The notes beneath the pieces were generated by a model that ran no database searches, was not told where the DNA came from, and worked only from the letters and a program-made list of their open reading frames with translations. Positions 1,331 to 41,286 of a stretch of 41,286 nucleotides of DNA are shown here, in pieces. How positions within the stretch are numbered: position 1 is the first letter of the stretch; the number at the start of each line of letters is the position of its first letter. This stretch comes from a virus (Duplodnaviria > Heunggongvirae > Uroviricota > Caudoviricetes). The DNA is taken from IMG/VR virus record IMGVR_UViG_2565956711_000007; one strand, written 5' to 3'. The position numbers and the translations under genes are program-made.

Positions 1331-1345
1331 GCTTTTTTATACTAA
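1331..1345. other. attL core (lambda O region), junction of bacterial B arm and phage P' arm
   Basis: Exact GCTTTTTTATACTAA 15-mer; downstream sequence matches lambda P' arm (GTTG.CATTATAAAAAAGCATTGCTTATCAATTT). Confidence 0.9.
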
Positions 1346-1421
1346 GTTGTCATTATAAAAAAGCATTGCTTATCAATTTATTGCAACGAACAGGTCACTA
1401 TCAGTCAAAATAAAATCATTA
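1346..1421. promoter_or_regulatory. attL P' arm with IHF H' site and Int arm-type sites P'1-P'3
   Basis: TATCAATTTATTG (IHF-like) and AGGTCACTAT / CAGTCAAAAT arm-type repeats at about 1393-1411. Confidence 0.7.
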
Positions 1422-2489
1422 TTTGATTTCAATTTTGTCCCACTCCCTGCCTCTGTCATCACGATACTGTGATGCCATGGTGTCCGACTTATGCCCGAGA
1501 AGATGTTGAGCAAACTTATCGCTTATCTGCTTCTCATAGAGTCTTGCAGACAAACTGCGCAACTCGTGAAAGGTAGGCGGATCCCCTTCGAAGGAAAGAC
1601 CTGATGCTTTTCGTGCGCGCATAAAATACCTTGATACTGTGCCGGATGAAAGCGGTTCACGACGAGTAGATGCAATTATGGTTTCTCCGCCAAGAATCTC
1701 TTTGCATTTATCAAGTGTTTCCTTCATTGATATCCCGAGAGCATCAACATGCAATGTTGTAGGGATGGCAATTTTTACGCCTGTTTTGCTTTGCTCGACA
1801 TAAAGATATCCATCTACGATATCAGACCATTTCATTTCGCATAAATCCCCAACTCGCTGCCCGGTAACAACAGCCAGTTCCATTGCAAGTCTGAGCCAAC
1901 ATGGTGATGATTCTGCTGCTTGATAAATTTTCAGGTATTCGTCAGCCGTAAGTCTTGATCTCCTTACCTCTGATTTTGCTGCGCGAGTGGCAGCGACCGG
2001 GTTTGTTGTTATATGGCCTTCAGCTATTGCCTCTCGGAATGCATCGCTCAGTGTTGATCTGATTAACTTGGCTGACGCCGCTTTGCCCTCGTCTATGTAT
2101 CCATTGAGCATTGCCGCAATTTCTTTTGTGGTGATGTTTTCAAGTGGAGCATCAGGCAGACCCCTCCTTATTGCTTTAATTTTGCTCATGTAATTTATGA
2201 GTGTCTTCTGCTTGATTCCTCTGCTGGCGAGGATTTTTTCGTAGCGATCAAGCCATGAATGTAACGTAACAGAATTATCACTGTTGATTCTTGCTGTCAG
2301 AGGCTTGTGTTTGTGTCCTGAAAATAACTCAATGTTTGCCTGTATTGCTTCAGTAATTGCTATCCTCCTGTCTCTGCCTAATCCGAACTCTTTACCCGTC
2401 CTTGGGTCCCTGTAGCAGTAATATCCATTGTTTCTTATATAAAGGTTAGGGGGTAAATCCCGGCGCTCATGATTTCGCCTTCTTCCCAT
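1419..2489 (-). CDS. int: Integrase, lambda Int type (tyrosine recombinase)
   Basis: 356 aa; near-identical to recalled lambda Int (MGRRRNHERRDLPPNLYIRNNGYYCYRDPRTGKEF...); adjacent to att. Confidence 0.97.
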   Translation of the reverse strand: MGRRRNHERRDLPPNLYIRNNGYYCYRDPRTGKEFGLGRDRRIAITEAIQANIELFSGHKHKPLTARINSDNSVTLHSWLDRYEKILASRGIKQKTLINYMSKIKAIRRGLPDAPLENITTKEIAAMLNGYIDEGKAASAKLIRSTLSDAFREAIAEGHITTNPVAATRAAKSEVRRSRLTADEYLKIYQAAESSPCWLRLAMELAVVTGQRVGDLCEMKWSDIVDGYLYVEQSKTGVKIAIPTTLHVDALGISMKETLDKCKEILGGETIIASTRREPLSSGTVSRYFMRARKASGLSFEGDPPTFHELRSLSARLYEKQISDKFAQHLLGHKSDTMASQYRDDRGREWDKIEIK

Positions 2490-2685
2490 TTCTGATCCTC
2501 TTCAAAAGGCTACCTGTTACTGGTCGATTTAAGTCAACCTTTACCGCTGATTCGTGGAACAGATACTCTCTTCCATCCTTAACCGGAGGTGGGAATATCC
2601 TGCATTCCCGAACCCATCGACGAACTGTTTCAAGGCTTCTTGGGCGTCGCTGGCGAGCGTTCCACTCCTGAAGTGTCAAGTACAT
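2467..2685 (-). CDS. xis: Excisionase, lambda Xis type
   Basis: 72 aa MYLTLQEWNARQRRPRSLETVRRWVRECRIFPPPVKDGREYLF...; overlaps int start by 23 nt as in lambda. Confidence 0.95.
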   Translation of the reverse strand: MYLTLQEWNARQRRPRSLETVRRWVRECRIFPPPVKDGREYLFHESAVKVDLNRPVTGSLLKRIRNGKKAKS

Positions 2686-2710
2686 CGCAAAGTCTCCGCA
2701 ATTACACGCA

Positions 2711-2735
2711 AGAAAAAACCGCCATCAGGCGGTTT
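2711..2735 (-). terminator. Rho-independent terminator on the leftward transcript, upstream of xis
   Basis: Stem CCGCC / GGCGG with 4-nt loop followed by a U-run on the minus strand (plus-strand AAAAAACCGCCATCAGGCGG). Confidence 0.6.
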
Positions 2736-2892
2736 GGTGTTCTTTCAGTTCTTCAATTCGAATATTGGTTACGTCTGCATGTGCTATCTGCGCCCATATC
2801 ATCCAGTGGTCATAGCAGTCGTTGAAGTCCTCTGCTTCGATAACCCTGTTGAATGGTTCTCCATTCCATTCACCTGTGACTCGGAAGTGCAT
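2725..2892 (-). CDS. Small hypothetical protein (55 aa) upstream of xis
   Basis: Manual translation MHFRVTGEWNGEPFNRVIEAEDFNDCYDHWMIWAQIAHADVTNIRIEELKEHQTA; GGAG 8 nt upstream of ATG; stop lies inside terminator loop. Confidence 0.4.
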   Translation of the reverse strand: MHFRVTGEWNGEPFNRVIEAEDFNDCYDHWMIWAQIAHADVTNIRIEELKEHQTA

Positions 2893-3050
2893 TTATCATC
2901 TCCATAAAGCAAAACTCGCCGTAGCGAGTTCAGATAAAAGAAATCCCCGCGAGTGCGAGGATTGTTATTGTCTTTTCTTCGTGCATTTGTCGCACTTTCG
3001 GCACCATCCAGATAGGCACATCCGTCCGCAATTAACACATATAGGCCACA

Positions 3051-3329
3051 TCATTTTTCCTCTTTTGGTTTATGAATCTGAATGGTCATGCCGCTTTGAG
3101 TGGTGACTACAATGACAGAACCAGGCTGAAGACTGTTAAGATTGAATGCTTCGTAAAACGAATCCAAGGCCAGCGTTTTTTTATTCTTTCGGTTCCACCA
3201 ACGCCATCCCTTGCTACAGGCTACACTGACAATCCACTGCCCACTCCTGTAAGCCATATAAAACCAGATGAGCAAAACCTGAAGGAATGCTATCCAGTCA
3301 ATAATCGTATATTTCGCGAAGGAGTCCAT
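3051..3329 (-). CDS. Hypothetical membrane protein (N-terminal TM helix, beta-rich C-terminus)
   Basis: ATG at 3329 with AGGAGG 7 nt upstream; hydrophobic segment YTIIDWIAFLQVLLIWFYMAY; start overlaps upstream stop (TGATG). Confidence 0.5.
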   Translation of the reverse strand: MDSFAKYTIIDWIAFLQVLLIWFYMAYRSGQWIVSVACSKGWRWWNRKNKKTLALDSFYEAFNLNSLQPGSVIVVTTQSGMTIQIHKPKEEK

Positions 3330-4564
3330 CACTTCACCTCCTGCTGCGGTGCTGCTGGCATTTCACGCCAGTGCGTAACTGAGTGCGGATCCGGATATTC
3401 GGTGCCATCATCCCAGCGATTGCCATTCCACATTGCAGACCACATCTCACCGTCTTCATACATGACCATTACCGGAATTAACTTATCCGGCATTCGCTCA
3501 CTACAGCTTATCCAAGCATCCGGAGTTACCGGAGAATTGCCACCCTGAACAGTAGGCATATCCGGACCTTTGCGAATCGCCCTGGCAAGATCGATTGGGT
3601 CGTCGTACAACCAGTCACCTGTTTGCGGATGATTGGCTTCTGCCAATTGTGCAGCCCACTCCAGGCCGTCTTTGTGTCCTTGCAGATAGTCCAGCGGCAA
3701 CTCATCACGATTACTTACGGGTTCGATTTGTTCGGAATTACCGGACAACTGCATGGTACCTTCATTGGTGAGGGTACCATCTGCACCCTGAAGCATGGCG
3801 GCGCGGCAGGCATACTCAACGCCCTTAACTGCATCTGCGCAGTAGTTATAGCGATTGCATTCCACTAATTTCCGTTTGAGTTTTTCAATTGCCTGCGCGA
3901 CATCAGCCTGTATTACAGGAACTGGCGGAACGGCTGTTTGCTCTCGAACGTCATTAGTCGCTATCGGTTCTGCTGCCAACTGACTGGCATATTTGTTAAT
4001 GGTAACGATAAGCTCTTGCTCAGCCTCATCCAGACAATCACCGATACCTCGCCTGTCACCGTCAAAATCATCGAAATCGGCACGAATCTTGGCAACCTTC
4101 AGGATTGCGGACAACACCTCACTAGGAATTACCGGATAGTTGGTTGACGTTTCCGCGATTTCCCGAAAATTATTGGTTGACGAATTCTTGTTTTCCCGAA
4201 AGTTTCCGGACTGAAGCATGGCGGCGCGGCAGGCGTTCCAGCCTCTCACCTCTGCAATAGCGGCAACAGCATCAACCGTGTACATGCTAAGAGGATTAGG
4301 CATTGGTTTTTCTTCCGGTACTACTGGAACGGGGGGAGCGGCGTAGACCTCAATAATTCCATTATCAATAGGCCATTCTCCATCCTTGAGGTAGTCACTT
4401 GTGCCGTCAACTTGCTGTTCTGCAATGTGGAATGCACCTATTGGTTTTGCTTCGAGCGATGCCAGCGCAATCCGTGCCAGTTCCATTTGTTCACCACGGG
4501 TAAGCCCGTTTTCAAGCGGATTTTTAATGAACAATTCAATACGTTCTTTGGTAATAGTGCTCAT
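3329..4564 (-). CDS. Ea22-like accessory protein with internal duplication and DUF551-like C-terminus
   Basis: 411 aa; two copies of ACRAAMLQ motif encoded by a 24-bp perfect direct repeat (3788-3811 and 4211-4234); C-terminal W-rich region resembles phage DUF551. Confidence 0.55.
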   Translation of the reverse strand: MSTITKERIELFIKNPLENGLTRGEQMELARIALASLEAKPIGAFHIAEQQVDGTSDYLKDGEWPIDNGIIEVYAAPPVPVVPEEKPMPNPLSMYTVDAVAAIAEVRGWNACRAAMLQSGNFRENKNSSTNNFREIAETSTNYPVIPSEVLSAILKVAKIRADFDDFDGDRRGIGDCLDEAEQELIVTINKYASQLAAEPIATNDVREQTAVPPVPVIQADVAQAIEKLKRKLVECNRYNYCADAVKGVEYACRAAMLQGADGTLTNEGTMQLSGNSEQIEPVSNRDELPLDYLQGHKDGLEWAAQLAEANHPQTGDWLYDDPIDLARAIRKGPDMPTVQGGNSPVTPDAWISCSERMPDKLIPVMVMYEDGEMWSAMWNGNRWDDGTEYPDPHSVTHWREMPAAPQQEVK

Positions 4565-4567
4565 GGG

Positions 4568-4999
4568 TTAGTCCTCACCTTTCTGTTGCACTACCGGAAC
4601 CGATAAATCGACGCACCAGGAGATAACGCCGAATTGATCATCGTTCTGCGCTTCACCCCAAACGTAATATTTTGATCCTGGCCGACCCATTGCCGGGTCA
4701 AATACTTCTATGCCGCGTTCTGCCGTTAACGACATCAGAATCTGATGCAGGCCGCCTTTGATGTTCAGTGACGGAACGGTCAGGAAGTAAATAAACCCGT
4801 AAAGCAATTCGGCCTTGCGCTGGCTTCCGTAAAAATACGGGATTTTGTAATAATCCAGCGCGTCGTCGAGCCAGTCTGTTTTGTCGTGGAATTTCTGATG
4901 CCAGCGTTCCACTACCTCATCGACAGGTTGACCGGCAACCATTGCAACGCAGGTAGCCATGCAGGTGTTAAATGTTGGCTGCATTTGATGTTGAAGCAT
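4568..4999 (-). CDS. Putative papain-like (C39-type) cysteine peptidase domain protein
   Basis: 143 aa from ATG 4999; N-terminal Q....NTCMATCVAMV resembles the C39 peptidase Gln/Cys active-site motif; family assignment from motif only. Confidence 0.45.
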   Translation of the reverse strand: MLQHQMQPTFNTCMATCVAMVAGQPVDEVVERWHQKFHDKTDWLDDALDYYKIPYFYGSQRKAELLYGFIYFLTVPSLNIKGGLHQILMSLTAERGIEVFDPAMGRPGSKYYVWGEAQNDDQFGVISWCVDLSVPVVQQKGED

Positions 5000-5373
5000 C
5001 ACTCCCCCTTACCGATGCCAGCGGCGCTAAGCTTGGTATTCACATCACCTTCAAAAATAGGCAGTACACCAATTGCAGCGGCCCAGTTTTTAGCTAACTC
5101 AGGGTCAGATGTCTCGTCGGTGTAGTCTGATGCCCGCCACCCAATCAGTCGTTTCTGACCAGGAATGTCAGAGTTTCGCTTCTCCGTTGCTTGCTCTAGA
5201 GCATTAAGAAGTGTACGTATTTCATGCTGCTGAGTAGAGATGCTTGAGTCTTTGGCTTCCAGCTCATCAAGCAGCGCCAGCACATCCCGAGTGGGGACCA
5301 TAAAGTTCGGCATGAAGTTATCTTTTGCCTTTTCTGCTGTTAGGCGCAGCGCCTGTTTGTCGATGTTTCTCAT
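4999..5373 (-). CDS. Hypothetical protein
   Basis: 124 aa; AGGAGG 7 nt upstream of ATG 5373; stop overlaps next start. Confidence 0.5.
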   Translation of the reverse strand: MRNIDKQALRLTAEKAKDNFMPNFMVPTRDVLALLDELEAKDSSISTQQHEIRTLLNALEQATEKRNSDIPGQKRLIGWRASDYTDETSDPELAKNWAAAIGVLPIFEGDVNTKLSAAGIGKGE

Positions 5374-6107
5374 TGGGCGGCCTCCTGGCGGTCTATGCGT
5401 TCAATTTCAGCCAGAATAAGTGCGCCAGCTTTCACCAGGTCACGGCGTGGATTTGTCGGCTTCCACCATTCTGGTGTCCACGGCCAGCCAAATGGAATGC
5501 GGTTAAATGGATGGATGGCATTCAGTACGTAGCATGAGGATGCCCACAGTAACTGCGATTTGCTGTACTGGTCATCATGCTCAGGCGTCCATCCCTCAAC
5601 TGATTGATGGCGTTGACGCTCTGCAATTACTGACTGAACGGCATTGGATAGCGATTTCACACCCTGCGCACGCACTTCAGCCAGGAAAGCATCGGTGGCT
5701 GGGGTTTCTGGAATGGCGTCTGGAATAACCTCTGAGTAGACGCGTTCCATTGCCGACTCCCATCCGTAGTAACAAGCCGAATAGCCGTCGCGCTGGTAGC
5801 CGTGGTCTTCAACTCCACATCCCATGCCCTGGTCATGGTATTCAGGCTGATTGTCGGGATTAATGCAGTATTCAATGACCGACTTCATCCCCGCATTCTC
5901 CGCTGCCAGCGCAGTGCACTTGGCCTCAAGGTTATCAATCGTGATTCCAGCAGAACGACACTCCCGCAACGCCGTTTCCAGTTTTGATTCAAGTTCACCG
6001 AACTTACGGACAAGGTATTCAGCGTTTGTTTCGTTAACCTTTAAATCTCGTGGGATGCATTTACCTTTCAGAAAACCATCCATCTCAATTAGTGACATTT
6101 GTTTCAT
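5370..6107 (-). CDS. Hypothetical protein
   Basis: 245 aa ORF in the operon, ATGA-type overlap with upstream gene. Confidence 0.5.
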
Positions 6108-6286
6108 TTTTTCCCACTCCGAAACATCGCATTCAGATATTTGTTTTGATTCACTGACGGAAAAGCATTTCTCTTAAGCAATTCCTCTCTCGATGGCATT
6201 GGCTTTACGCGCTGGCGAATAATCATTTCTGCCGGAAGAATGCCGGGATTGTATGCAAGTCCTCTCATGGTAAATTCCTCAGTCAT
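6104..6286 (-). CDS. Hypothetical small protein (60 aa), start uncertain
   Basis: ATG 6286 overlaps stop of upstream ORF (ATGACTGA); no clear SD. Confidence 0.3.
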
Positions 6287-6572
6287 TACTGATAGCGCCA
6301 TAGCGTGAGCGGTAATTACGCAGGCGCGGGTCAATTTCAGGGAAGTGGGTATATGTGGCTTTGCGGAATGGTCGGATTGATGTCTGGTAAATTCGCTCGC
6401 GTTCTTCTTTCTCTGCAAGCCATATACAGTGACGAAATTCCTTTTCCTCTTTCGTTTCCTGCGGTAGCGACATTATCCGATCGTAGTTTTTTCTGAATTT
6501 ATCCAGCACCTCCGATACGGAATTGCCGGAACAGCGGCGCGCGTCGTCCGCACCATACAGAGGCGCTGGCAT
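6279..6572 (-). CDS. Hypothetical protein
   Basis: 97 aa; AGGAG 6 nt upstream of ATG 6572. Confidence 0.55.
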
Positions 6573-6585: not shown

Positions 6586-7065
6586 TTAAATTGCGTGAAT
6601 AGCGTGACGAGGGAAGGGGAGAGTTACTGGTTCCTCGTCTGGGTAGATAGGTTTGTTATGTTTGTGCCACTCGACATGACATGACTTGCAGAGCCACATC
6701 ACATCGGTTGGTTTGCTGTAGTCGCAGTGGTGCGCCTGTGGTTTACATTCTGATCCGCAGCACTCACATTGTGGTGGTCGGATTAGCTTACCGTCGCGCA
6801 AAAAATTACCCACAATGATGTGGGCTTTTCTTTTCCATGGGTTGCTCTGAATGAACCGCTTTTTGGCTGCGTTACACCGTTCTCTTCCGCGTTCCGATGA
6901 TTGATATTCTCTCCTTGCTGATACTCGATGTGGCAATCCAGCGCGTTCTTTGTCGTATTCAGCCAGGCAAGCCCGGCAAGCGGCAGTTAATCCATCTCTG
7001 GATGCTCTTCTGATTTGAAAGTCCCTTTCTTCCTTCTGTTGATGGCATCTTGAGCAGACTTTCAT
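6586..7065 (-). CDS. Putative HNH-type endonuclease / zinc-finger protein
   Basis: 159 aa; multiple CxxC pairs and HHCDY....WLCKSCHVEWH motif typical of HNH; AGGAG 6 nt upstream. Confidence 0.5.
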   Translation of the reverse strand: MKVCSRCHQQKEERDFQIRRASRDGLTAACRACLAEYDKERAGLPHRVSARREYQSSERGRERCNAAKKRFIQSNPWKRKAHIIVGNFLRDGKLIRPPQCECCGSECKPQAHHCDYSKPTDVMWLCKSCHVEWHKHNKPIYPDEEPVTLPFPRHAIHAI

Positions 7066-7074
7066 ATTCAGCTC

Positions 7075-7548
7075 CTAGAACGGAATATCCGAATCGTCGA
7101 AGTTCATAGGTGGTTCGCTGTGATTCCCATGCTGCTGAGATTGCTGTCTTTGTTGCTGGCCGTTATTTCGCTGAGGTGAAGACTGTTCATTGCCTCCTTG
7201 CTTGCCACCAAGCATTTGCATGGTTCCACCAACGCCCACGATGACTTCGGTAGTGAACCGATCCTGTCCGCTTTGATCCTGCCATTTTCTTGTCCGCAAT
7301 TTGCCTTCAAGATAAACCTCAGAGCCTTTTCGCAGATATTCGCTGGCAATTTCTGCCAGTTTCCCGTTCATTACCACGCGGTGCCACTCCGTCTGCTCCT
7401 TTTGCTCTCCAGTTTGCTTATCACGCCATTGTTCTGACGTAGCAACTGTAAGGTTTGCAAATGCCGTTCCTGATGGTGAATATCTGATTTCTGGATCATG
7501 CCCAAGGCGACCAATAATGATCACCTTATTTACGCCTCTGCTTGCCAT
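7075..7548 (-). CDS. ssb: Single-stranded DNA-binding protein
   Basis: 157 aa; OB-fold N-terminus, Gly/Gln-rich linker, acidic C-terminal tail DDSDIPF. Confidence 0.9.
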
Positions 7549-8256
7549 TTATGCCGCCTGTTTTAGCTCGTTAACTCTGATGTTCATTACCTGAACGCAT
7601 TTAGCCTGCGCATCCTCATTGCCAGCCATTAATTGCCAGTCATGCTGATAACGCTCGATGAGTTTTTTCTTGTCAGTTTCTGTTGATGCATAATCGCTGA
7701 AGTCTTTCAGGATTTGTTCGCAGTCAACCGATGGAGATGTCTGGTTGGTATTTTCTGGTGATGGTTTGTTATCTGATGCTGGGATTGCCCATCCCGGCAG
7801 CGATGGAGGGAGCCAGTAAAATCCTGTTCCATCCTTCAGTTTTGCCCTGTGCCACCCCTGTTTTTTATCAAGAGATGTTTGTGCGAAACCTTCCTCAAGG
7901 TTATACAGATACCGACCGATTCCCCACTGTACGGCAGCGCGCTTCATTGCACCGGAACGACCACCTTTGACGGCTTCTACCTGCGTGTTTTCAGCAGCAT
8001 CCCATTTGGTTACCCATTCGGAATCAATCCTGATTGATATGCCGCATTCAACGCCGCCGTTGTTAGGAATATCGCGGTATTCATTGCGCCATCCTGCTTT
8101 GCCACAAACATCGTCCAGGCGTTTCATGATTGCCCGGTTCGTGACATAAGCCAGCACCATAGCCCACACTTTGCCATCGCGTGTTTTACCGCTTTGCTGT
8201 ATTCGCCATTCGATATCTTCAGGGCTGAATGGCTCATCGAATTTATTCAAATCCAT
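7549..8256 (-). CDS. Rad52-family single-strand annealing recombinase (Sak/Erf-like functional slot)
   Basis: 235 aa; motif GKVWAMVLAYVTNRAIMKRLDDVCG...GISIRIDSEWVTKWDAAEN...GGRSGAMKRAAVQWGIGRYLY; sits beside ssb in the bet/erf position. Confidence 0.7.
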   Translation of the reverse strand: MDLNKFDEPFSPEDIEWRIQQSGKTRDGKVWAMVLAYVTNRAIMKRLDDVCGKAGWRNEYRDIPNNGGVECGISIRIDSEWVTKWDAAENTQVEAVKGGRSGAMKRAAVQWGIGRYLYNLEEGFAQTSLDKKQGWHRAKLKDGTGFYWLPPSLPGWAIPASDNKPSPENTNQTSPSVDCEQILKDFSDYASTETDKKKLIERYQHDWQLMAGNEDAQAKCVQVMNIRVNELKQAA

Positions 8257-8803: not shown

Positions 8804-9772
8804 TTAGTAGGTTATTTTTGTTGCGAATACTTCGCCTTTTACGATGGCTGTTATGATATTTTTAGCAACATCTTCTGATGCGCCAACCTTGATAAGGTCA
8901 GCAAGTATTTTGTTATTTACTTCTTTCCGGTGAGCTTTATCCTTTGCTCTACGCTCTTCTTCTTCCTTGATTCTTTTTTCTTCTGCTATTCTGGCTTGCT
9001 CTTTTGCTTCAGCCTCGCGCCGGATTCGTTCAGCCTCCTCCTGTGCTTTTCTGCGTTCTGCTTCAATTGCTGCCTGCTTTTCTCTTTCAGCTCGTTCTGC
9101 TGCCTCTTTTGCTTCGCGCTGTGCTCGTTGCTCGGCTTCAATGCGTTCACGCTCTGCACGTTCCGCTGCGGCCTTAGCTTCTGCTTCTCGCCTTGCTGCT
9201 GCTTCAATTTCGGCTTTTGCCTTTGCTTCGGCTTCAGCTCTGGCTTTCTCTTCAGCTTCTCTTTTTAAGCGTTCTTCATGCTCTCGCTTTTCCTGCTCCG
9301 CTTTGAGTCTTGCCTCTTCTCTTTGGCGGTCAAATTCGCGATCCATCAAAATCGCTATTTCATGGTCAGACTCAATTTGCTTTGCGAGAGCTTCAGCTGC
9401 TGACTTAGCTTCTTCTTCGGCTTTAATCCGTGCCTGTTCCTCCTCATAATCAGTAAGAGGCTGGCGCGCCTTGGCTTTCAGTTCATCAAGGCGATCACGC
9501 ACTGTCTTGCGGTTAGCATCAATTAGCTTTGGAATTTCCTTCAGTTCAGCAACAAGGTCTTTGCCAAGACCATCGAGATATGTTTTCGTCTGCGCAACTT
9601 TATACGCCAGAGAAGCGATCTCCTTTCTGCCCTTTGCCGTTGTGATATCAGGCACAAAGGACATAACTTCACGTTCAACCTTTTGGAGAATTTCTTCAAT
9701 CTGGTCGGCAGACTGAAATACAGTCATTGCATTTGCTTTTTCAATAACAACTAAATCTGTTACTTCACTCAT
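8804..9772 (-). CDS. Hypothetical protein with long E/R/K/A-rich charged helix (single-alpha-helix or coiled-coil like)
   Basis: 322 aa from ATG 9772 (GGAGG 4 nt upstream); about 150-residue low-complexity EAERAEREKQAA-type segment between structured N- and C-terminal parts. Confidence 0.65.
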   Translation of the reverse strand: MSEVTDLVVIEKANAMTVFQSADQIEEILQKVEREVMSFVPDITTAKGRKEIASLAYKVAQTKTYLDGLGKDLVAELKEIPKLIDANRKTVRDRLDELKAKARQPLTDYEEEQARIKAEEEAKSAAEALAKQIESDHEIAILMDREFDRQREEARLKAEQEKREHEERLKREAEEKARAEAEAKAKAEIEAAARREAEAKAAAERAERERIEAEQRAQREAKEAAERAEREKQAAIEAERRKAQEEAERIRREAEAKEQARIAEEKRIKEEEERRAKDKAHRKEVNNKILADLIKVGASEDVAKNIITAIVKGEVFATKITY

Positions 9773-9784
9773 ATATCCTCCATC

Positions 9785-9811
9785 AAAAAAAATTGCCCTC
9801 ACACTGGAGGG
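9785..9811 (-). terminator. Rho-independent terminator (tL1-like) on leftward operon
   Basis: Stem GCCCTC / GAGGGC, 6-nt loop, followed by 7-U run on minus strand; sits just upstream of the SD of the following gene. Confidence 0.65.
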
Positions 9812-9916
9812 CAAAGAAGATTTCCAATAATCAGAACAAGTCGGCTCCTGTTTAGTTACGAGCGACATTGCTCCGTGTATTCACTCGTTGGAATGAATAC
9901 ACGGTGCTTATTCATA

Positions 9917-10387
9917 CTAATAAAACACCCAATTTTCTGTTTCTTTGTTGTGTCCAAAGTTATATTCAATATCTGGTGTTGATGTATCAATATTCTTCAT
10001 CCCATCAACAAGAGTTGATACAACAGCCAAATCTTGTTTGATTCTCATCAAATGGTATTTCTTCCGGCGCAATAAACTTTCAATGGCAAGTTTCTTCGTC
10101 GGGAACGCAAAAGATCTTTCTGCATTTTTTGCTACTTTCTTAATTGCATATCTATTTCTCCTTTGTTTCCATTCCTGTAACCACTGATTTGGTGCTGGTT
10201 TAAAATTAACAATCCAATGCGCAGGAACCAACCATGCATAATGCTCTGTCTGATGAAAAGCTATATATTGAAGTGCGAATATTTTGATTCCATCTTCTTC
10301 AACTGTCGCTTGGAATCTCCAGAAAACAGGCATTCCATCATGTTCAGTTTCTGATTCAGGAAAAGGTACGCTCCATGATTTTGTCAT
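9917..10387 (-). CDS. Hypothetical protein (156 aa), AT-rich, Trp-rich
   Basis: Intact ORF immediately following the upstream stop; visibly lower GC than flanks. Confidence 0.55.
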   Translation of the reverse strand: MTKSWSVPFPESETEHDGMPVFWRFQATVEEDGIKIFALQYIAFHQTEHYAWLVPAHWIVNFKPAPNQWLQEWKQRRNRYAIKKVAKNAERSFAFPTKKLAIESLLRRKKYHLMRIKQDLAVVSTLVDGMKNIDTSTPDIEYNFGHNKETENWVFY

Positions 10388-10390
10388 ATA

Positions 10391-10642
10391 TTACTCATCT
10401 CCAATGGCTTTGCTGATTGCTGACAGTGCTTTCGATACTTCATCAGGATAATGGTCATCCCAGTTTTGCTTGTATGCCTTGTTTAGCATCGCTTGCAGAG
10501 CTTCGAGCAAATCAGGAGCTGCCTCCATCAATCTCACATCACCTCGATGGATGGTTGTATCGTCAAACGTGAAATAAACCCCATCATCGTTAAATCCAGC
10601 GCCAACAACATTCCATGGCCTTTTCATTCTTCCTACTGTCAT
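10391..10642 (-). CDS. Hypothetical protein (83 aa)
   Basis: GAGGTGA 4 nt upstream of ATG 10642. Confidence 0.5.
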   Translation of the reverse strand: MTVGRMKRPWNVVGAGFNDDGVYFTFDDTTIHRGDVRLMEAAPDLLEALQAMLNKAYKQNWDDHYPDEVSKALSAISKAIGDE

Positions 10643-10674
10643 TATTCACCTCTGTTGTTTATGCCAAAGCAAAT

Positions 10675-10917
10675 TTAACCATCAACAAACTCTTCTGGTA
10701 ATTTATCAACCAGTTGATGACTTATTATCAGCCATTTGCCATCCTTCGTTTCGTATGCATATTTCTGGTCTTTTATCATCATGTGTTCGGCTACTGCCCT
10801 AACTGCCTGATCGGTGACATCTTCTCTCTTTCCTACCCACATTCCTTTTTCAGTGTTTAATGTTCCTTGAAAAATACGACCACTTAATGGGCTTGCGCCC
10901 ATAGTTTTTACTCTCAT
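10675..10917 (-). CDS. Hypothetical protein (80 aa)
   Basis: GAGG 8 nt upstream of ATG 10917. Confidence 0.5.
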   Translation of the reverse strand: MRVKTMGASPLSGRIFQGTLNTEKGMWVGKREDVTDQAVRAVAEHMMIKDQKYAYETKDGKWLIISHQLVDKLPEEFVDG

Positions 10918-10981
10918 GTATCAGTCCTCAAATAAGTGGTTTGCTGCCAAAACAATGAACCATCCGGAAATTCCAGATAGT

Positions 10982-11206
10982 TCATAATTCACTCTTCAAT
11001 ACTTCCAGCTTACTAATCGCCGAAAGATATCCGCGCTGATAGGGCATCATCATTCCTTCGAGCTTGCCACTTCTTAACTCCTCCCTGAGCAATTGTATTG
11101 CTTGATCAATAACCTCTGCCTTAGCGTCCTTTATGGCTTGCTTTCGGGGCTTTGCTTTCTGCTTTGGCAGATTTCTCAAGCATGATGGAATGTATGTCTG
11201 ATTCAT
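10982..11206 (-). CDS. Hypothetical protein (74 aa), basic N-terminus
   Basis: ATG 11206 with GAGG 6 nt upstream, directly after N stop. Confidence 0.5.
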   Translation of the reverse strand: MNQTYIPSCLRNLPKQKAKPRKQAIKDAKAEVIDQAIQLLREELRSGKLEGMMMPYQRGYLSAISKLEVLKSEL

Positions 11207-11209
11207 CAC

Positions 11210-11854: not shown

Positions 11855-11869
11855 GCGCTTTGTCAGCGC
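11855..11869 (-). promoter_or_regulatory. nutL boxB hairpin (P22 type)
   Basis: Minus-strand GCGCTGACAAAGCGC, identical to the P22 nutL boxB sequence as I recall it; no canonical boxA found upstream. Confidence 0.7.
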
Positions 11870-11937: not shown

Positions 11938-12023
11938 AAGATAACTTAGGTTATAGGTGTGGTCAATAACCTAATTTATATTTTATGGTAAATAAGTTAT
12001 AAGTGATGGATAACAAAGGTATT
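11938..12023 (-). promoter_or_regulatory. pL promoter with OL operators
   Basis: Minus strand -35 TTGACC (11961-11966), 17-nt spacer, -10 TATCTT (11938-11943); operator-like ATAAC-N4-GTTAT at 11941-11954, degenerate copies at 11966-11979 and 12010-12023. Confidence 0.55.
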
Positions 12024-12152
12024 TTATTTTTGTAAATGTTGCTGATTGATTGGTGTTTGAGGGCTTGCGTGCGGGGTGAAGGTGTTACCTTTGGCTTGAT
12101 GCTTGTCTATGATGAGGATGGTTGATTGGGTGGTGAACGGCAGGAAAAGAAA

Positions 12153-12178
12153 ACCCGGCGCTGAGGCCGGGTGTTTTT
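12153..12178. terminator. Bidirectional rho-independent terminator ending the cI operon
   Basis: Stem ACCCGGC / GCCGGGT with 6-nt loop, T-runs on both sides; overlaps stop codon of the 98-aa ORF. Confidence 0.7.
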
Positions 12179-12473
12179 AGTCTTTTCTTTTGCTTAGCAT
12201 TTCGTCGATTTCTAAGTCAATACGATATTGATCTATTGCTTTTCTCTCGTTTGGGGTTGGTATTTTATACTGTTCAATTAGATCTGTTGTGTATTTTATT
12301 TCATCTAATGTTATTTTTATATCAGAGAGAATCTCTTTTATATCAATTATATGCTCTTCTTCTTTTGCGCGATTAGAGCTATGTTCAATCATTTGAGATA
12401 GCTTTTTGCTAATGCTTAGCAAAACAAAAAGAATGATGACCAAAACAACAACAAAAACTATCAGAAATTCCAT
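12177..12473 (-). CDS. Hypothetical small membrane protein in the rexAB slot, co-transcribed with cI
   Basis: 98 aa; N-terminal TM helix EFLIVFVVVLVIILFVLLSI then charged helical tail; GGAGGG RBS; 40 nt downstream of cI on same strand; strikingly AT-rich. Confidence 0.7.
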   Translation of the reverse strand: MEFLIVFVVVLVIILFVLLSISKKLSQMIEHSSNRAKEEEHIIDIKEILSDIKITLDEIKYTTDLIEQYKIPTPNERKAIDQYRIDLEIDEMLSKRKD

Positions 12474-13221: not shown

Positions 13222-13311
13222 ACCCACAAATCTATAACTACGGTTATCCAAAGTAAAATAACAAAGGTTATTGCTATTTTTTATAACTTGAGTTATCTTT
13301 GGTTATAACTA
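13222..13311. promoter_or_regulatory. OR region: divergent pRM and pR with three operators
   Basis: ATAAC-N4-GTTAT at 13234-13247, 13258-13271, 13283-13296; pR -35 TTGCTA (13271-13276) and -10 TATCTT (13294-13299); pRM -10 TAGATT 7 nt before the cI ATG. Confidence 0.65.
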
Positions 13312-13332
13312 ATGACCACAAGAGGTATGCTC

Positions 13333-29536: not shown

Positions 29537-29544
29537 TAACCAGA

Positions 29545-29566
29545 GGGAGCTTCGGCTCCCTTTTCT
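29545..29566 (+). terminator. Rho-independent terminator right after coat gene
   Basis: GGGAGC TTCG GCTCCC then TTTTCT. Confidence 0.65.
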
Positions 29567-29579
29567 ATTGGAGATACCA

Positions 29580-30173: not shown

Positions 30174-30651
30174 TTTAGTCCTTGCAGCATTACGTAAGCT
30201 CGGTGTTGCATCAAATGCCACGTTAACCGATGTCGAACCGCAGTCTATGGAAGACGGCGTCAACGACCTTGAAATGATGATGGCTGAATGGCTTGGCGGT
30301 GATGTGTCACCTGGTATCAACGTTGGCTACATTTTTGCTGATGCAGATGTCGCTCCGGATCCGGGCGATGAGCACGGTTTATCAAATAACGCTATCAATG
30401 CCGTCATTTTCAACCTTGCCTGCCGCATTGCTCCGGATTATGCGCTGGAATCGTCAGCAAAACTTATAACCACTGCCAGATACGGGAAAGAGCGACTCGT
30501 CAAACTGTCTGCAATGGACAGAGCAAAAGCCGCTAAATGTAAGTCCGGTTATCCAAACCGTATGCCTGTTGGTAGCGGTAACCAGTTGGCGAAGTGGAAC
30601 GGTTGGAATTACTTCCACCGGAAGGAACCTTGCGATAACGGGAGCGAATAA
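30148..30651 (+). CDS. Head-to-tail adaptor / tail accessory factor (P22 gp4-like)
   Basis: 167 aa from ATG 30148; [26 protein letters not shown] as in P22 gp4. Confidence 0.85.
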
Positions 30652-32070
30652 ATGCCGATTCAGCAACTTCCGCTTATGAAAGGTGTCGGCAAAGACTTTC
30701 GAAACGCTGACTATATCGACTATCTGCCAGTGAATATGCTGGCTACACCCAAAGAAATACTCAACAGCAGCGGATATCTTCGCTCATTCCCGGGCATTGC
30801 CAAACGTTCTGATGTGAATGGTGTATCGCGCGGTGTCGAGTACAACATGGCGCAGAATGCTGTTTATCGCGTGTGTGGTGGCAAGTTGTATAATGGCGAA
30901 AGCGAGGTCGGTGATGTTGCCGGAAGTGGTCGCGTATCAATGGCGCATGGGCGAACATCTCAGGCGGTAGGCGTTAATGGTCAACTGGTCGAGTATCGCT
31001 ATGATGGCACGGTTAAAACAGTCTCAAACTGGCCTACAGACAGCGGATTCACTCAGTATGAGTTAGGTTCGGTTCGCGACATTACGCGCTTACGTGGGCG
31101 TTATGCGTGGTCAAAAGACGGAACTGATTCATGGTTTATCACTGACCTTGAAGACGAATCGCACCCTGACCGATACAGTGCGCAATATCGCGCAGAATCG
31201 CAGCCTGACGGCATCATCGGCATAGGTACATGGCGAGACTTCATCGTCTGCTTTGGTTCATCGACGATTGAATATTTTTCCCTGACAGGTGCAACCACCG
31301 TTGGTGCCGCTTTGTATGTCGCACAGCCATCGCTGATGGTGCAGAAAGGTATTGCCGGGACTTACTGCAAAACGCCGTTTGCTGATTCGTATGCGTTCAT
31401 CAGCAATCCGGCAACTGGTGCGCCGTCTGTATACATCATTGGCTCCGGTCAGGTGTCACCAATCGCCAGCGCGAGCATTGAGAAAATTCTCCGCTCCTAC
31501 ACTGCTGATGAACTGGCTGATGGTGTGATGGAGTCTCTGCGATTTGATGCGCATGAGCTGCTGATTATCCATCTTCCGCGCCATGTTCTGGTGTACGACG
31601 CATCTTCAAGCGCCAATGGTCCGCAATGGTGTGTGCTGAAAACAGGCCTGTATGACGATGTGTACCGCGCTATCGACTTCATTTACGAAGGCAATCAGAT
31701 AACGTGCGGCGATAAGCTGGAATCGGTTACTGGCAAATTGCAGTTCGATATCAGCAGCCAGTATGGGCTTCAACAGGAACACCTGCTGTTTACTCCACTG
31801 TTCAAAGCGGATAACGCCAGAGTGTTCGACCTTGAGATTGAATCGTCAACTGGCGTTGCGCAGTATGCTGACCGCCTTTTTCTCTCTGCAACCACTGACG
31901 GCATCAATTACGGGCGTGAGCAGATGATTGAGCAGAATGAACCGTTCGTTTACGACAAACGCGTTTTGTGGAAGCGAGTAGGGCGCATCAGGAAAAATGT
32001 CGGCTTCAAATTGCGCGTTATCACGAAGTCACCTGTCACTCTGTCTGGCTGCCAGATAAGGATTGAGTAA
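30652..32070 (+). CDS. Tail hub protein (P22 gp10-like)
   Basis: 472 aa, same length and position as P22 gp10. Confidence 0.85.
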
Positions 32071-32771
32071 TGGCTGATTCGAATCTCAACACCCCTGTTA
32101 TTGTGCAGGCGACGCGGCTCGATACATCAATACTTCCACGCAATATCTTCTCGCAGTCGTATCTGCTTTACGTTATTGCACAGGGCACTGATGTTGGTAA
32201 CGTAGCTAACAAGGCCAACGAGGCCGGACAGGGTGCTTATGACGCACAAGTCAGGAACGATGAGCAGGATGTGATTCTGGTCGATCACGAAGAAAGAATT
32301 CGTCAGCTCCGCATTGAAGTAGATGACCATGAAATCCGTATTGCTGCGAATACTGCGGCAATTGCAGCGCTGGATGTCAGACTAACCACGGCTGAGGGAG
32401 AAATAGTCACCTTACAGGATGACGTCAGCGCTCTTGATGGCCGGGTTACGACTGCTGAGAGCAACATTTCTGCATTACAGGACGACTATGTATCGAAAAC
32501 AGCCACTGCAACACAATCGCTGGCATCTCCCCTCAATGTAACAACATCCTATTCGGTCGGCGGCACCAAGGTTATTGGTGCTCGTCAGACAGGGTGGACG
32601 CCGGGAACTGGTACCGCCAATCTCGGCACTTTCAATGCCGATCAGTCATTCACTGTCGGCGCGGCATACTCACAGGCAGAGGTTAAGGCCATTGCCAATG
32701 CGCTTATAGCGGCTCGCAAACGCATTCTGGCGCTTGAGCAGGCCATGAGAACCCACGGACAAATCGACTAA
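32070..32771 (+). CDS. Tail needle / cell-envelope penetrating protein (P22 gp26-like)
   Basis: 233 aa; N-terminus [18 protein letters not shown] and coiled-coil heptads as in gp26. Confidence 0.9.
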
Positions 32772-38191: not shown

Positions 38192-38292
38192 CAAAACAGT
38201 GAAGCCCCAACTGCTGGAACAGTCAGGGCTTCGGTATCAACAAAACTTACGAGGTATTATTGATATGTCAAGCTTAGCAAAGTCAACTGTAA
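38192..38292 (-). ncRNA. Predicted sar-like antisense RNA covering the ant ribosome-binding site
   Basis: Minus-strand -35 TTGACG (38321-38326), 16-nt spacer, extended -10 TGcTATTAG (38299-38307); hairpin 38201-38232 then U-rich tract. Confidence 0.35.
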
Positions 38293-39155
38293 ATTGCACT
38301 AATAGCATCATCATTTCTGACGTCAAGATTCATATGGATTCAGAGGGTCGTTACTCGCTTAATGACCTTCATGTAGCATCTGGAAAGGAGGAAAAACATC
38401 AGCCAGCTTTCTTCATGCGTAGAAATGAAACTATTGAATTGATTAATGAAATTTTTAATTCTGCGGATATGCAGAATAAGAATCCCGTCCTTTCTAAGAA
38501 AGGTAGATATGGTGGAACCTACGTTTGCAAGGAGCTTGTTTACTCCTACGCCATGTGGATTAGCGCAGCCTTTGCGCTGAAGGTTATCCGTGCATATGAC
38601 GCAATGGTTACTACCACACAAGAGAGGAAGGCTATTGGCGGTAAAACTTCAGTAGCTGAACGCACACCGCTACGCGATGCAGTAAACATGCTGGTAGGAA
38701 AGAAAGGACTTCGCTATGACGATGCATACAATATGGTTCATCAGCGTTTTGGTATTGACAGCATTGATGAACTTTCAATTGAACAAATCCCGCTGGCCGT
38801 AGAGTACATCCACAGGGTAGTGCTTGAAGGCGAGTTTATCGGCAAACAAGAGAAGAAAGCAAACGAGCTTTCTGCAAAAGAAGCAAACAGCCTTGTATGG
38901 CTATGGGATTATGCTAACCGTTCACAGGCATTATTCCGCGAACTGTATCCGGCATTAAAACAAATTCAATCGAACTATTCCGGCAGATGCTACGACTACG
39001 GTCATGAATTCTCGTATGTTATCGGAATGGCGAGAGACGTTTTAATAAACCACACACGAGATGTTGATATTAATGAACCAGACGGACCAACGAATCTTTC
39101 CGCATGGATGAGACTTAAGAATAAAGAATTACCTCCTTCAGTACATAACTACTGA
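38265..39155 (+). CDS. ant: Antirepressor Ant-like protein with KilA-N-type N-terminal domain
   Basis: 296 aa from ATG 38265; follows arc as in P22 immI; N-terminal [10 protein letters not shown] motif. Confidence 0.7.
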
Positions 39156-39173
39156 CAGATAACCAACGCAACG

Positions 39174-39197
39174 ACCCAGCTTCGGCTGGGTTTTTTT
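39174..39197 (+). terminator. Rho-independent terminator after ant
   Basis: ACCCAGC TTCG GCTGGGT then TTTTTTT. Confidence 0.85.
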
Positions 39198-39333
39198 ATG
39201 CCCAAAATTCACCGTAGCTACTCAGCGGCTATGGCCTTGAGAGATAGCACTACACAAAAAGTGTAGTGCAAAAAGCAAACAAATACTCACCGTAGCCACG
39301 CTGCGGCGATTACTTGTATCTGGAGCAAATTAA

Positions 39334-41286
39334 ATGACAGACATTACAGCCAATGTTGTAGTGAGTATGCCTTCGCAACTCTTCACTATGGCACGTTCTT
39401 TTAAAGCCGTAGCCAATGGTAAAATTTATATCGGTAAAATTGACACTGACCCGGTAAATCCAGAAAACCAGATTCAGGTTTATGTGGAGAACGAAGACGG
39501 TTCTCACGTTCCTGTTTCGCAACCAATCATCATTAACGCTGCTGGTTATCCGGTATATAACGGACAGATTTCCAAATTCGTAACTGTGCAAGGCCATTCT
39601 ATGGCTGTTTATGATGCATATGGTGCTCAGCAATTCTATTTCCCTAATGTGCTGAAGTATGACCCTGATCAATTTTCTGTATGGGCAAAAAATCATTTCA
39701 GACTTAACTTCTATTTTAAGTCTGATATTAGTTTTTCATCAGGTGGACATATTGATGATGAGCGCTATGCTGTTCTTTATGATAACGATCCTGATGGAAA
39801 CATGTATTTTTATGCCAGGAAATATATAGCAGAAGGCGGTTATGATGTTGATGCTGGAAGCCATCCAGATGATAATTGGATATGCGTTGGACTACTTAAT
39901 GGCTTTAACTTAAACACCCCAGAGAACTTCGGCGCCAAACCTTATTCTGAAAGTGATTGTTTAAATGCAATTAACATGGCAATTAAAACAGGGTTTATTG
40001 AGTTAACGCCTGGTTGTACATATTTTGTTAGCGATGAAGTTGTTATCCCATCGTATTTAGTGATGGAAACAAACGGCGCAACTATTAAAGCGATGAGTGG
40101 CTATTCATGGGGTGGAAAGGCTGTAGTTCGCGCCAGCAAAAAACCAGTAGGAACATCCCCGGATCTTTCATTGCCTGAACAACAAGTTCGTGGAATTAGA
40201 CACATTGGTACATTAAATATTGATGCTAACAATGTTGCGCCTTACGGTTTTTATGGTTTTGGTGTAGTTGCAGAATCTGCCACAGACATTATATATGCTT
40301 ATAATGCCACAGAAGTTGGAATTGTACTTCTTGGGAGTTGGTATCATAAAGTAAATCAATATATGGGAATTGATTGTGCAAGAGGTGTATCTTTGGCGCA
40401 TGGTTTCTCCGGTGAAACCGGAGATGTAAACGTTAATGGTGTTGAATTTGGTGTCGTCGCCGCGTATAACACATCAAAATCTTTGTCCTATGGGTATGAT
40501 CCGTATTCATCATCTTTAACCCCACAACTCATAGGTGCCGGTGTCACCCTCGGGCAAGGATTGGCATCAAGAATAGGAACATTAATAGCTGAAACCACAG
40601 CAGGCGCTGGTTTAGCTACTGTTAACGCTGTTAGTTGGTCTGTTGGTTCTATGTACTTCGAAAAATGCAGTGAAGCGCTTGAAGATAGTGCAGAGCCTGA
40701 TATTGCGATATTATCAACTACAGGAAATGTCGAGGACCACGTATTTGACGTCGGTAATATCCATTTTGGCATAGGGACTGGTATACTGCAAAGAGCGACG
40801 GCAAGTGAGTTTCTCAACATCCAATCCATATACCGTATAGACAATAAAAAAACATGGCATAGTTCTTCAAAGGCGTCTTCAAGTTTTGTAAATTTCGTAA
40901 ACTATTACGTTCTCAACCCTTATGATTACGTTAAACCGGTTCAACTGACTAATGACGTAGGCAAGGATGTTATAAGTTCATCGGCAATGCTTAACTTTAA
41001 GGATTTTTCAAATACGCCAAATATCCCATTTTTTTATACTGGCGGTGATCTTGATATTAATATAAGCATATCAGAGGGTTCGATTATTGGGCTTGGTATT
41101 CAGGTTCAGTCTGAAGATGGAATTGAATATATAACATGCACATCATCACCGTTTTCAGCAAAGCTAACAAAAAGGAGAAATGCTTATTCTGTTTATTGGG
41201 TATCAATGGGAACTCCAGTTCAAGCAGCTACTGGCATGGGGGCGATTATAATAACAAAACAAAAAACTTCTCAATGGCTTCGTTAG
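39334..41286 (+). CDS. Tailspike protein (P22 gp9-type head-binding domain, divergent receptor-binding domain)
   Basis: 650 aa; first about 115 residues match recalled P22 tailspike N-terminus ([12 protein letters not shown]...[20 protein letters not shown]); remainder AT-rich and unrelated to what I recall of P22. Confidence 0.9.

Follow-up and report, generated by a model that had tools for sequence, protein, structure and literature searches.

Routine lambdoid mosaicism in a prophage, very probably of the P22-like podovirus kind, at the lambda attachment site of Escherichia coli

Is a prophage that joins the integration, Q and lysis genes of phage lambda to the virion genes of phage P22 a noteworthy hybrid, or one more product of the exchanges that are routine among lambdoid phages? 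The question is raised by the IMG/VR virus record IMGVR_UViG_2565956711_000007, a stretch of 41,286 nucleotides (hereafter the window, at its full length) that an earlier note had described as such a mosaic. Comparison of the whole window by blastn with lambda, P22, HK620 and Sf6 displays the mosaic directly, and tiling by best match over eight phages, gene-by-gene tblastn and family matches in Pfam and PHROG, which cover almost all late genes and regulators, bear it out. Very probably, the window opens with the host gene ybhC and then covers, almost to its end, a temperate lambdoid prophage of 40.3 kb that sits in the E. coli lambda attachment (att) site and belongs to the P22-like (Lederbergvirus-type) podoviruses. 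Nothing found in the sequence speaks against this. The patchwork itself, with segments related to HK97, lambda, IME10, Sf6, N7, APC_JM3.2, a Stx1a (Shiga toxin 1a) phage and Emek, is a case of routine lambdoid recombination at conserved boundary sequences.

The ends of the element place it in the host chromosome. The att core begins at position 1331; to the left of it lies the B arm of E. coli attB (GAAGCCT), adjoining ybhC. Aligned with lambda attP, attL shows 2 mismatches in the ~90 bases to the right of the core, the left side being unrelated. The open reading frame (ORF) listing follows the lambdoid layout, with a leftward block at 1419-13251 and a rightward block at 13312-41286. The window ends at the stop codon of the 650-amino-acid (aa) tailspike gene, and the right end of the prophage lies beyond it. 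That end is present on an NCBI scaffold (GCA_000488015.1 KI530595.1, retrieved through the exact tailspike protein) to which the last 11,953 window bases are 100% identical: attR lies 338 bases past the tailspike stop codon and is followed by ybhB and bioA; its lambda P arm, in which the sib/tI hairpin and the arm sites are found, leads into the core and then the B' arm (CTTGAGCGAAACGGG). Taking attL from the window and attR from KI530595.1, the prophage measures 40,293 bp from core to core.

Could the mosaic be an assembly artefact that joined a lambda-like to a P22-like prophage? Nothing specific speaks for one, beyond the fact that E. coli genomes often hold several lambdoid prophages with repeated segments (a query of the first 25 kb, ybhC included, finds matches in 5,426 of 5,426 complete E. 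coli genomes, at a median of 3 places per genome). However, the identical scaffold is 2.88 Mb long and runs from the tailspike into an attR and ybhB that match the attL on the ybhC side, the gene order is canonically lambdoid throughout, and in E. coli GB089, whose genome is closed, the region between ybhC and ybhB is laid out alike. An artefact is extremely improbable.

How close to lambda are the lambda-like parts of the prophage? The earlier note had counted int, xis, att, Q, pR', S, R and the start of Rz among them, and by blastn these match lambda at 93.1-97.6% nucleotide identity: 97.6% over 1331-2968 (lambda 27724-29361; att core, P' arm, int, xis and orf55), 96.7% over 18486-19478 (Q, pR', qut and tR') and 93.1% over 19679-20957 (S, R and the start of Rz). 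With two short patches added, lambda accounts for 4,381 of ~39,956 prophage bases (~11%). Identities of 93-98% could be taken for the mark of a recent, direct hybrid of lambda itself with a P22-like phage, a noteworthy recombinant between types. However, in the eight-phage tiling lambda is the best match only at 2723-2968, and each module has a closer phage: HK97 for int/xis/att (98.4%), the P22-like coliphage IME10 for Q through Rz (98.0%) and Sf6 for the lysis cassette (97.0% over 19690-21308). Other best matches are to Sf6 in the recombination region (98.3%), N7 in the replication region (98.3%) and APC_JM3.2 in the head region (97.1%).

The lambda-type genes are, moreover, already in circulation. 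The lambda-type Q occurs in P22 (96% aa identity to that of the prophage) and in HK620, HK97, N7, IME10 and APC_JM3.2 (99-100%), and not in Sf6 or Huey, a phage isolate considered below; according to the epsilon34 genome paper, lambda Q shares 96-99% identity with the Q proteins of P22, of epsilon34 and of a prophage of Paratyphi, and experiments have shown P22 gp23 to be of the same specificity (PMC2629481). HK620, Sf6, N7, IME10, APC_JM3.2 and Huey all have lambda-type S and R, and the GB089 prophage has the same combination of modules as this one. With other phages nearer for all of the lambda-like modules, a direct cross of lambda with P22 was rejected as very improbable. As far as sequence comparison goes, "lambda-like" stands here for a shared lambdoid gene pool and not for lambda as the donor.

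Downstream of Q, a base-by-base alignment shows that the prophage shares with lambda both pR' hexamers, the tR' hairpin and, as pause element, AACGAT, and a lambda Q/qut late antitermination module appears to be present. The earlier note had placed junctions at the ends of Rz and at the KilA-N gene. Similarity to P22 does stop at the end of Rz and the KilA-N gene does lie in an unmatched segment, but the switch from lambda to P22 falls within Rz. In a sliding comparison, identity to lambda stays above 92% until ~20,823 and then drops to 36-78%, whereas identity to P22 rises from below 50% to 78-98% from ~20,724 onwards and holds to the Rz stop codon at 21146, which puts the switch at ~20,775-20,825, 70-115 nucleotides into the gene. 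The same point is annotated in Sf6 as "bsq7; boundary sequence" (Sf6 37312-37359, with Sf6 Rz starting at 37243), a coincidence that also counts against a direct hybrid. On the packaging side the junction is looser than had been claimed, as two unrelated cassettes, one of them with the KilA-N gene, precede gene 3, and the P22-type block proper begins only there, at ~23115-23185. These cassettes (21375-22048, 674 bases with the KilA-N gene, and 22527-23114) find no match in the eight reference phages and are bordered by conserved boundary segments. The KilA-N slot is occupied by a Rha regulator in APC_JM3.2 and T43, by other KilA-N proteins in HK620 and HK97, by ORF201 in P22 and by a DUF551 protein in GB089.

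Has the combination been seen before? Int/xis/att is the sole module that classical P22-like phages do not share, and even this has precedents. The prophage of E. coli GB089 (NZ_CP013663, 943.7-984 kb) occupies the same ybhC-ybhB site and resembles the one described here in int and xis (99-100% aa), Q (99%), S, R and Rz (96-100%), gp3 (87%), gp2, portal, scaffold and coat (99-100%), the WDGH gene (98%), gp4 and gp10 (97-99%), gp16 (92%), immI and a tailspike with the head-binding domain. It differs in immunity, N, replication (a toprim primase-helicase) and nin genes, and it has a classical DUF2824 gp14, other types of gp7 and gp20 and another tailspike receptor domain; ~49% of the window's prophage bases align with it by megablast. 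Huey (PQ850609), a temperate Lederbergvirus with turbid plaques isolated in the BASEL study (PMC11990801), has lambda-type int and xis (99% aa), an att region 98% identical in nucleotides from base 1331, and S, R and Rz at 98-100% aa. However, in its virion genes it belongs to the Sf6/CUS-3 subtype (34% aa identity in the portal, 26% in the coat), its Q is of the phage 21/Sf6 type, it is without immI, and its immunity and replication modules are different. Among the 15 best genome matches, 8 have ybhC, an integrase and a P22-type large terminase together.

The classical phages each share part of the pattern. IME10 and APC_JM3.2, both P22-like coliphages, are the closest sequenced phages for the late region (Q, S and R 98-100%; gp2 through gp10 98-100% aa; gp3 80-87%), but IME10 has IntS (argW type), APC_JM3.2 has another integrase, both have the classical gp14 and gp7, and their ejection proteins, immunity regions and tailspike receptor domains are unlike those of the prophage. 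P22 has the late gene order 3-2-1-8-5-4-10-26-(14)-7-20-16-immI-9, the identical nutL boxB, and sar with mnt, arc and ant. Unlike the prophage, it integrates at thrW through an unrelated integrase, carries a gene 19 lysozyme in place of a lambda R-type endolysin, and has c2 immunity, another tailspike receptor domain and gp7, gp20 and gp16 that are at most 43% identical or undetectable; the prophage, for its part, is without sieA and, as checked on the KI530595.1 locus, without gtrABC. Lambda and HK97 share int/xis/att, Q-pR'-qut-tR', S, R and the lambdoid regulatory layout, and HK97 also N, cII and several early genes (98-100% aa), but both are long-tailed siphoviruses with cos packaging, and none of their head or tail genes is in the window. 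Because other phages are closer for each module, and because GB089, Huey and the Sf6 boundary provide close precedents, the mosaic is an ordinary one. Neither among about 50,700 phage records nor among the 5,426 complete E. coli genomes is there one that covers 80% or more of either window half; the best reach ~59-65%. The exact genome is thus absent from the collections searched, an exact match, over the last 11,953 bases, coming only from the draft assembly GCA_000488015.1, and its kind is already known.

On the virion side, the earlier note's P22-like assignment stands for terminase, portal, scaffold, coat, needle and immI, while the ejection proteins are P22-like at the level of the family only and the tailspike only in its head-binding domain. 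Pfam matches follow the P22 order (GP3_package, Terminase_6N/6C, P22_portal, Phage-scaffold, P22_CoatProtein, P22_Tail-4, Phage_stabilise), with amino acid identities to P22 by tblastn of 87% for gp3, 92% for gp2, 78% for the portal, 84% for the scaffold, 73% for the coat, 59% for gp4, 93% for gp10 and 76% for the needle gp26. In nucleotides, P22 matches 23179-29563 at 78% (genes 3, 2, 1, 8 and 5) and 30126-32707 at 77% (genes 4, 10 and 26), with further blastn matches in the Q gene, part of the holin gene, 3' Rz, ORF80 and the end of ant. Between the coat gene and gene 4 lies a WDGH-domain gene, where P22 and APC_JM3.2 have merely an ORF of 69-88 aa and the GB089 prophage has a WDGH gene as well.

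Beyond the needle gene the resemblance to P22 thins out. The identical proteins on KI530595.1 carry precomputed Pfam matches to P22_gp7 and Phage_P22_gp16. However, gp7 is only 43% identical to gp7 of P22, HK620 and Sf6; among five model phages the gp7 proteins are 65-94% identical to one another (PMC10883804). The gp20-like protein finds no tblastn match to P22 gp20, is 52% identical to HK620 gp20 and shows no match to the Pfam family Inj_translocase that its relatives show, and gp16 is 31% identical to that of P22 and 91% to that of N7. The gene-14 slot encodes a 122-aa protein of another sequence family: tblastn against the reference phages does not link it to gp14, and its hhalign comparison with gp14/DUF2824 falls short of significance (probability 0.1%). 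Its AlphaFold model (predicted local distance difference test, pLDDT, 91.4) has a GNAT-like fold and resembles both GNAT acetyltransferases and a phage protein of the DUF2824 family (Foldseek E = 3e-5 for the latter), which makes it a plausible, compact structural equivalent of gp14. Relatives of the protein are encoded in genomes of Citrobacter, Morganella, Yersinia and Pectobacterium as well as in metagenomes. For the DNA of 32740-34310 (gene-14 slot, gp7-like gene and start of gene 20), megablast finds nothing among the 5,426 complete E. coli genomes, and the matches in the phage collection are short and weak, at 67-80%. This divergence is unusual in degree, not in kind.

The tailspike is divided in a similar way. 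Residues 1 to ~115 form a P22-type head-binding domain, and matches in the PDB (the N-terminal domains of the P22 and Sf6 tailspikes) are confined to residues 1 to ~130. The receptor-binding domain (39700-41286) is unrelated to the tailspikes of P22, HK620 and Sf6; over residues 124-650 it shares 79% identity with tailspikes of two 150-kb myoviruses, vB_EcoM_UP17 and the Phapecoctavirus TSP7_1, and it is ~41% identical to tail fibre proteins of the 40-kb phage records TM1, EFA-1 and EFA-2. Of the 5,426 complete E. coli genomes, only 2 contain the DNA of this domain, one of them in a P22-like prophage at argW with IntS. In a larger assembly collection the exact protein is found in at least 6 different P22-like prophages, this one included. 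Four distinct P22-like prophages from unrelated assemblies (loci L012, L014, L016 and L017) have a 650-aa tailspike identical to this one and lie at one and the same lambda attR/ybhB junction (locus position 12291), and a fifth locus with the identical tailspike (L015) adjoins ampE/nadC instead, which suggests that tailspike and att end travel jointly or recombine repeatedly.

Is the prophage alive? Genes with close functional relatives align over ~100% of their length, no insertion sequence (IS) elements or truncated genes were seen in the tblastn comparison, and attL, attR and every expected essential gene look intact. Given the full-length genes, the presence of kil, cIII and Rz1, a proper attR and the lack of IS elements and truncations, it is probably functional. 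From the P22-type neck, needle and tailspike genes its particles would be short-tailed podovirus particles: the late-region ORFs scanned all belong to P22-type or unknown-function families, with no long-tail genes (tape measure, tail tube) among them.

Several points weigh against a functional prophage of the P22-like kind. The gene-14-slot protein, gp7 and gp20 are unusually divergent, and their compatibility with a head and neck of the P22 subtype is assumed; inactivating point mutations, to which homology comparison is blind, may be present; and the P22 pac site (GAAGATTTATCTGAAGTCGTTA) has no match in the window at up to 3 mismatches. Could the prophage, then, be a cryptic one that looks complete but has at least one essential function inactive and yields no infectious podovirus particles? 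The distance of the gene-14-slot, gp7 and gp20 genes from any isolated phage (at most 67-80% in short stretches of the DNA of 32700-35150), the absence of 32740-34310 from the complete E. coli genomes, on account of which the parts are only presumed to assemble together, and the missing pac site all lean that way. However, both att sites are intact, 40.3 kb is the usual length for this phage type, the genes are of full length and free of IS elements and truncations, very different ejection proteins can replace those of P22 in virion assembly and injection (PMC10883804), and the gene-14-slot family is found in many Enterobacterales prophages. Because gp3 shares no more than 87% identity with its P22 counterpart, the pac result was not taken to show a defect. 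A defective prophage is unlikely, and a functional one remains the preferred reading. As to its kind, only ~33% of the prophage aligns to P22 by blastn (HK620 20%, Sf6 21%), and the genus threshold of the International Committee on Taxonomy of Viruses (ICTV) is ~70% whole-genome nucleotide similarity, so that a strict placement in Lederbergvirus would be tentative. The genus is highly mosaic (PMC11990801). Its accepted members are equally mosaic among themselves as this prophage is against them.

What governs lysogeny and induction? The earlier note had taken cI and the N/nut system to be of types other than those of lambda, and this proved right on both counts. The region 11940-13560 (OL, a 98-aa gene, cI, OR and cro) is 99.5% identical in nucleotides to that of the Stx1a-converting phage Stx1a_10051, and SH2026Stx1 has cI/cro at 94.5% identity, so the prophage should be homoimmune with some Shiga-toxin phages. 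The operator pattern ATAAC-N4-GTTAT has 5 matches in the window, all within OL or OR, against a chance expectation of 0.8, and a degenerate third OL site was read by eye at 12011. The true start of cI is probably downstream of a TTG. The N protein has no tblastn match to lambda N and is of the HK97 type; its arginine-rich N terminus and C-terminal 20 residues are like those of P22 gp24, the middle being unlike. The nutL boxB 15-mer, found once in the window, is identical upstream of P22 gene 24 and upstream of HK97 N, and 13552-14032 is 96.9% identical to HK97.

With module identity taken from sequence and function from the named homologues, a life cycle can be proposed. A lambda-type Int, with Xis for excision, would have recombined attP with attB between ybhC and ybhB. 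A LexA-like CI of the Stx1a-phage immunity type would keep pL and pR off through the ATAAC-N4-GTTAT operators, presumably to be inactivated by RecA-stimulated self-cleavage, while a second, P22-style immI switch (Mnt, Arc and sar RNA) would hold the antirepressor Ant off. On induction, the HK97-type N would antiterminate at nut sites with P22-type boxB, the O-like initiator and DnaC-like loader would replicate the genome, and the lambda-type Q would act at pR'/qut to carry transcription past tR' into S, R, Rz, Rz1 and the P22-order virion operon. DNA would be packaged by the headful, by gp3/gp2, into a head of gp1, gp8 and gp5, which gp4, gp10 and the gp26 needle would close and which would receive the ejection proteins gp7, gp20 and gp16; adsorption would proceed through six tailspike trimers whose receptor domain is common to Phapecoctavirus myoviruses. 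The coordinates of the features are collected in Table 1.

Table 1. Features of the window, with strand and basis of assignment (aa, amino acid or amino acid identity)
Feature	Position	Strand	Basis
ybhC, host gene (flank, non-phage)	1..1284	-	100% aa vs ybhC of E. coli GB089
attL	1331..1418	.	15-bp core GCTTTTTTATACTAA at 1331-1345 plus lambda P' arm
int, lambda-type tyrosine integrase, 356 aa	1419..2489	-	99% aa vs lambda and HK97; Pfam Phage_integrase and Arm-DNA-bind_1
xis excisionase, 72 aa	2467..2685	-	99% aa vs lambda, 100% vs HK97; Pfam Exc, E = 4e-41
Early-left accessory (ea) genes: lambda orf55 homologue, DUF4752, 411-aa DUF551 protein, Ead/Ea22-like, abc2	2725..6572	-	
Recombination module, Sf6 type: endonuclease-like gene, SSB, Erf	6586..8256	-	99% aa vs Sf6 genes 26-28
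kil	8511-8663	-	100% aa vs Sf6 and HK97 kil
cIII	8648-8779	-	ORF with motif ESLLERITRKLRDGWKR
Coiled-coil protein like Sf6 gene 33 (8804-9868); HK97 gp45 homologue (9917-10387); three small accessory genes	8804..11209	-	PHROG, function unknown
N antiterminator, HK97 type, 127 aa	11210..11593	-	98% aa vs HK97 N; Pfam N_peptide
nutL boxB hairpin GCGCTGACAAAGCGC	11855..11869	-	One exact match in window
OL operators, ATAAC-N4-GTTAT type	11941..12024	.	Pattern search
98-aa gene downstream of cI	12177..12473	-	phrog_18389, E = 6e-62
cI repressor, HTH and S24 peptidase	12514..13251	-	Pfam Peptidase_S24, HTH_3
OR1-3 operators	13234..13296	.	ATAAC-N4-GTTAT three times, spacing 24-25 bp
cro	13312..13557	+	phrog_35 transcriptional repressor; Pfam YdaS_toxin, HTH_3, P22_Cro
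nutR: boxA CGCTCTTT (13565-13572), boxB TCGCTGACAAAGCGA (13596-13610)	13565..13610	+	Direct sequence reading
cII	13696..13992	+	100% aa vs HK97 cII; Pfam Phage_CII
O-like initiator (14025-14870); DnaC/IstB-like helicase loader (14855-15718)	14025..15718	+	98-99% aa vs N7; Pfam Phage_rep_O, IstB_IS21
nin region: small genes, NinB (17284-17664), HK97 gp66-like, RusA (17952-18314), NinH	15715..18499	+	
Q late antiterminator, lambda type, 207 aa	18496..19119	+	99% aa vs lambda; Pfam Antiterm
pR' (-35 TTGACT, -10 TAAATT), qut/pause region, tR'	19162..19391	+	Aligned with lambda 44490-44890, 96% column identity
S holin	19929-20252	+	97% aa vs lambda
R endolysin	20236-20712	+	99% aa vs lambda
Rz	20709-21146	+	aa: lambda 59%, P22 90%, Sf6 98%
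Rz1 lipoprotein, embedded in Rz	~20908-21093	+	Lipobox LVVSAC
Variable cassettes between lysis and packaging genes	21134..23090	+	Sf6 gene 65-like, KilA-N protein, DUF2560/ORF80 (22279-22521), phrog_1365 gene (22523-22912)
KilA-N gene	21492-22022	+	Pfam KilA-N, E = 7e-18
P22-subtype head/neck genes: gp3 TerS, gp2 TerL, gp1 portal, gp8 scaffold, gp5 coat, WDGH gene, gp4, gp10, gp26 needle	23185..32771	+	
WDGH-domain gene, 197 aa	29580-30173	+	Pfam WDGH, E = 1e-39
gp4	30151-30651	+	
Gene-14-slot protein, 122 aa	32780..33148	+	phrog_17333
Ejection proteins: gp7-like 198 aa, gp20-like 435 aa, gp16-like 656 aa	33145..37017	+	phrog_598, phrog_2534, phrog_770
gp7-like gene	33145-33741	+	
61-aa coiled-coil-like protein	37161-37346	+	phrog_7586; sub-threshold DUF3847 only
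105-aa protein, Sec-type signal peptide MKRIAILLLLCLSSIANA	37356-37673	-	phrog_19844; peptide read from translation
mnt-like	37670-37921	-	PHROG Arc/Mnt match
arc-like	38027-38167	+	PHROG Arc/Mnt match
sar antisense RNA	38198-38263	-	Rfam RF00262, 58.4 bits vs gathering score 43
ant	~38265-39155	+	Pfam KilA-N and P22_AR_C
Tailspike, 650 aa	39334..41286	+	Pfam Head_binding, E = 4e-67

The immI region is of the P22 style, with Arc-family repressor genes on opposite strands, sar RNA and ant; sar is also the sole return of an Rfam scan of the window at gathering threshold, and a tRNA scan of the window found none. Over ~42% of 36990-38650, mnt-arc-ant is 96.3% identical in nucleotides to Salmonella phage Emek. 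Ant is itself a hybrid, with a KilA-N domain in its N-terminal half and P22_AR_C in its C-terminal half, ~53% of the protein being 85% identical to P22 Ant; in other P22-like prophages (L012 and L016) Bro-N or P22_AR_N stands at the N-terminal half. The position of P22 sieA is taken by the genes for the 61-aa and 105-aa proteins. The 105-aa gene is probably expressed in the prophage, because its start overlaps the mnt stop codon, and its product, which has no Pfam, PADLOC or NCBIfam match, is a candidate conversion or exclusion factor. There is a slim chance that the two oddities of this late region have a larger meaning: that 32740-34310 represents an ejection-protein type from another Enterobacterales lineage, which may alter DNA delivery or evade SieA-like exclusion, and that the 105-aa signal-peptide protein is a new exclusion factor.

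A second gene that is likely expressed in the prophage is the 98-aa gene past cI, for which Pfam, PADLOC and NCBIfam gave no match; a strong, terminator-like hairpin follows it at ~12150-12177, and in other lambdoid phages the slot holds rexAB or other prophage-expressed genes. Defence systems were looked for with PADLOC on ten accessory or prophage-expressed candidates and with NCBIfam on several, with no match; the candidates included this gene, the signal-peptide protein, some ea genes and the WDGH gene.

The early left region and the nin region complete the picture. The PHROG and Pfam matches of the ea genes are all to unknown-function families, and abc2 (6279-6572) is 93-99% identical in amino acids to proteins of P22, HK620 and N7. 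For 3345-4442, 4578-5890 and, in the nin region, 16066-17310, none of the eight reference phages gives a nucleotide match. The unmatched early-left and nin stretches (3329-5373 on the minus strand, 16066-17310 on the plus strand) include the 411-aa protein, DUF551 at its C terminus, and 144-aa and 124-aa proteins of unknown-function PHROGs; 17064-17339 gives a weak Lar-like match. The segment 6265-9907 is 98.3% identical to Sf6 by blastn. The motif in the cIII ORF recalls lambda CIII, and PADLOC found no match for the five genes scanned in 8804-11209.

What does such a prophage mean for the biology of its family and host? It is one more case of the lambdoid modular exchange known since the genome papers on HK97/HK022, Sf6, HK620 and epsilon34, and it matters little beyond annotation. 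Its Stx1a-type immunity region might give immunity to Stx1a phages, or let it recombine with them, and the receptor domain that its tailspike has in common with large virulent Phapecoctavirus phages is another exchange across very different phage types. For annotation, the point concerns the attachment site itself: the lambda att site of E. coli often holds P22-like podovirus prophages besides lambda-like and HK97-like siphoviruses, and an "att-lambda prophage" should not be presumed to be long-tailed.

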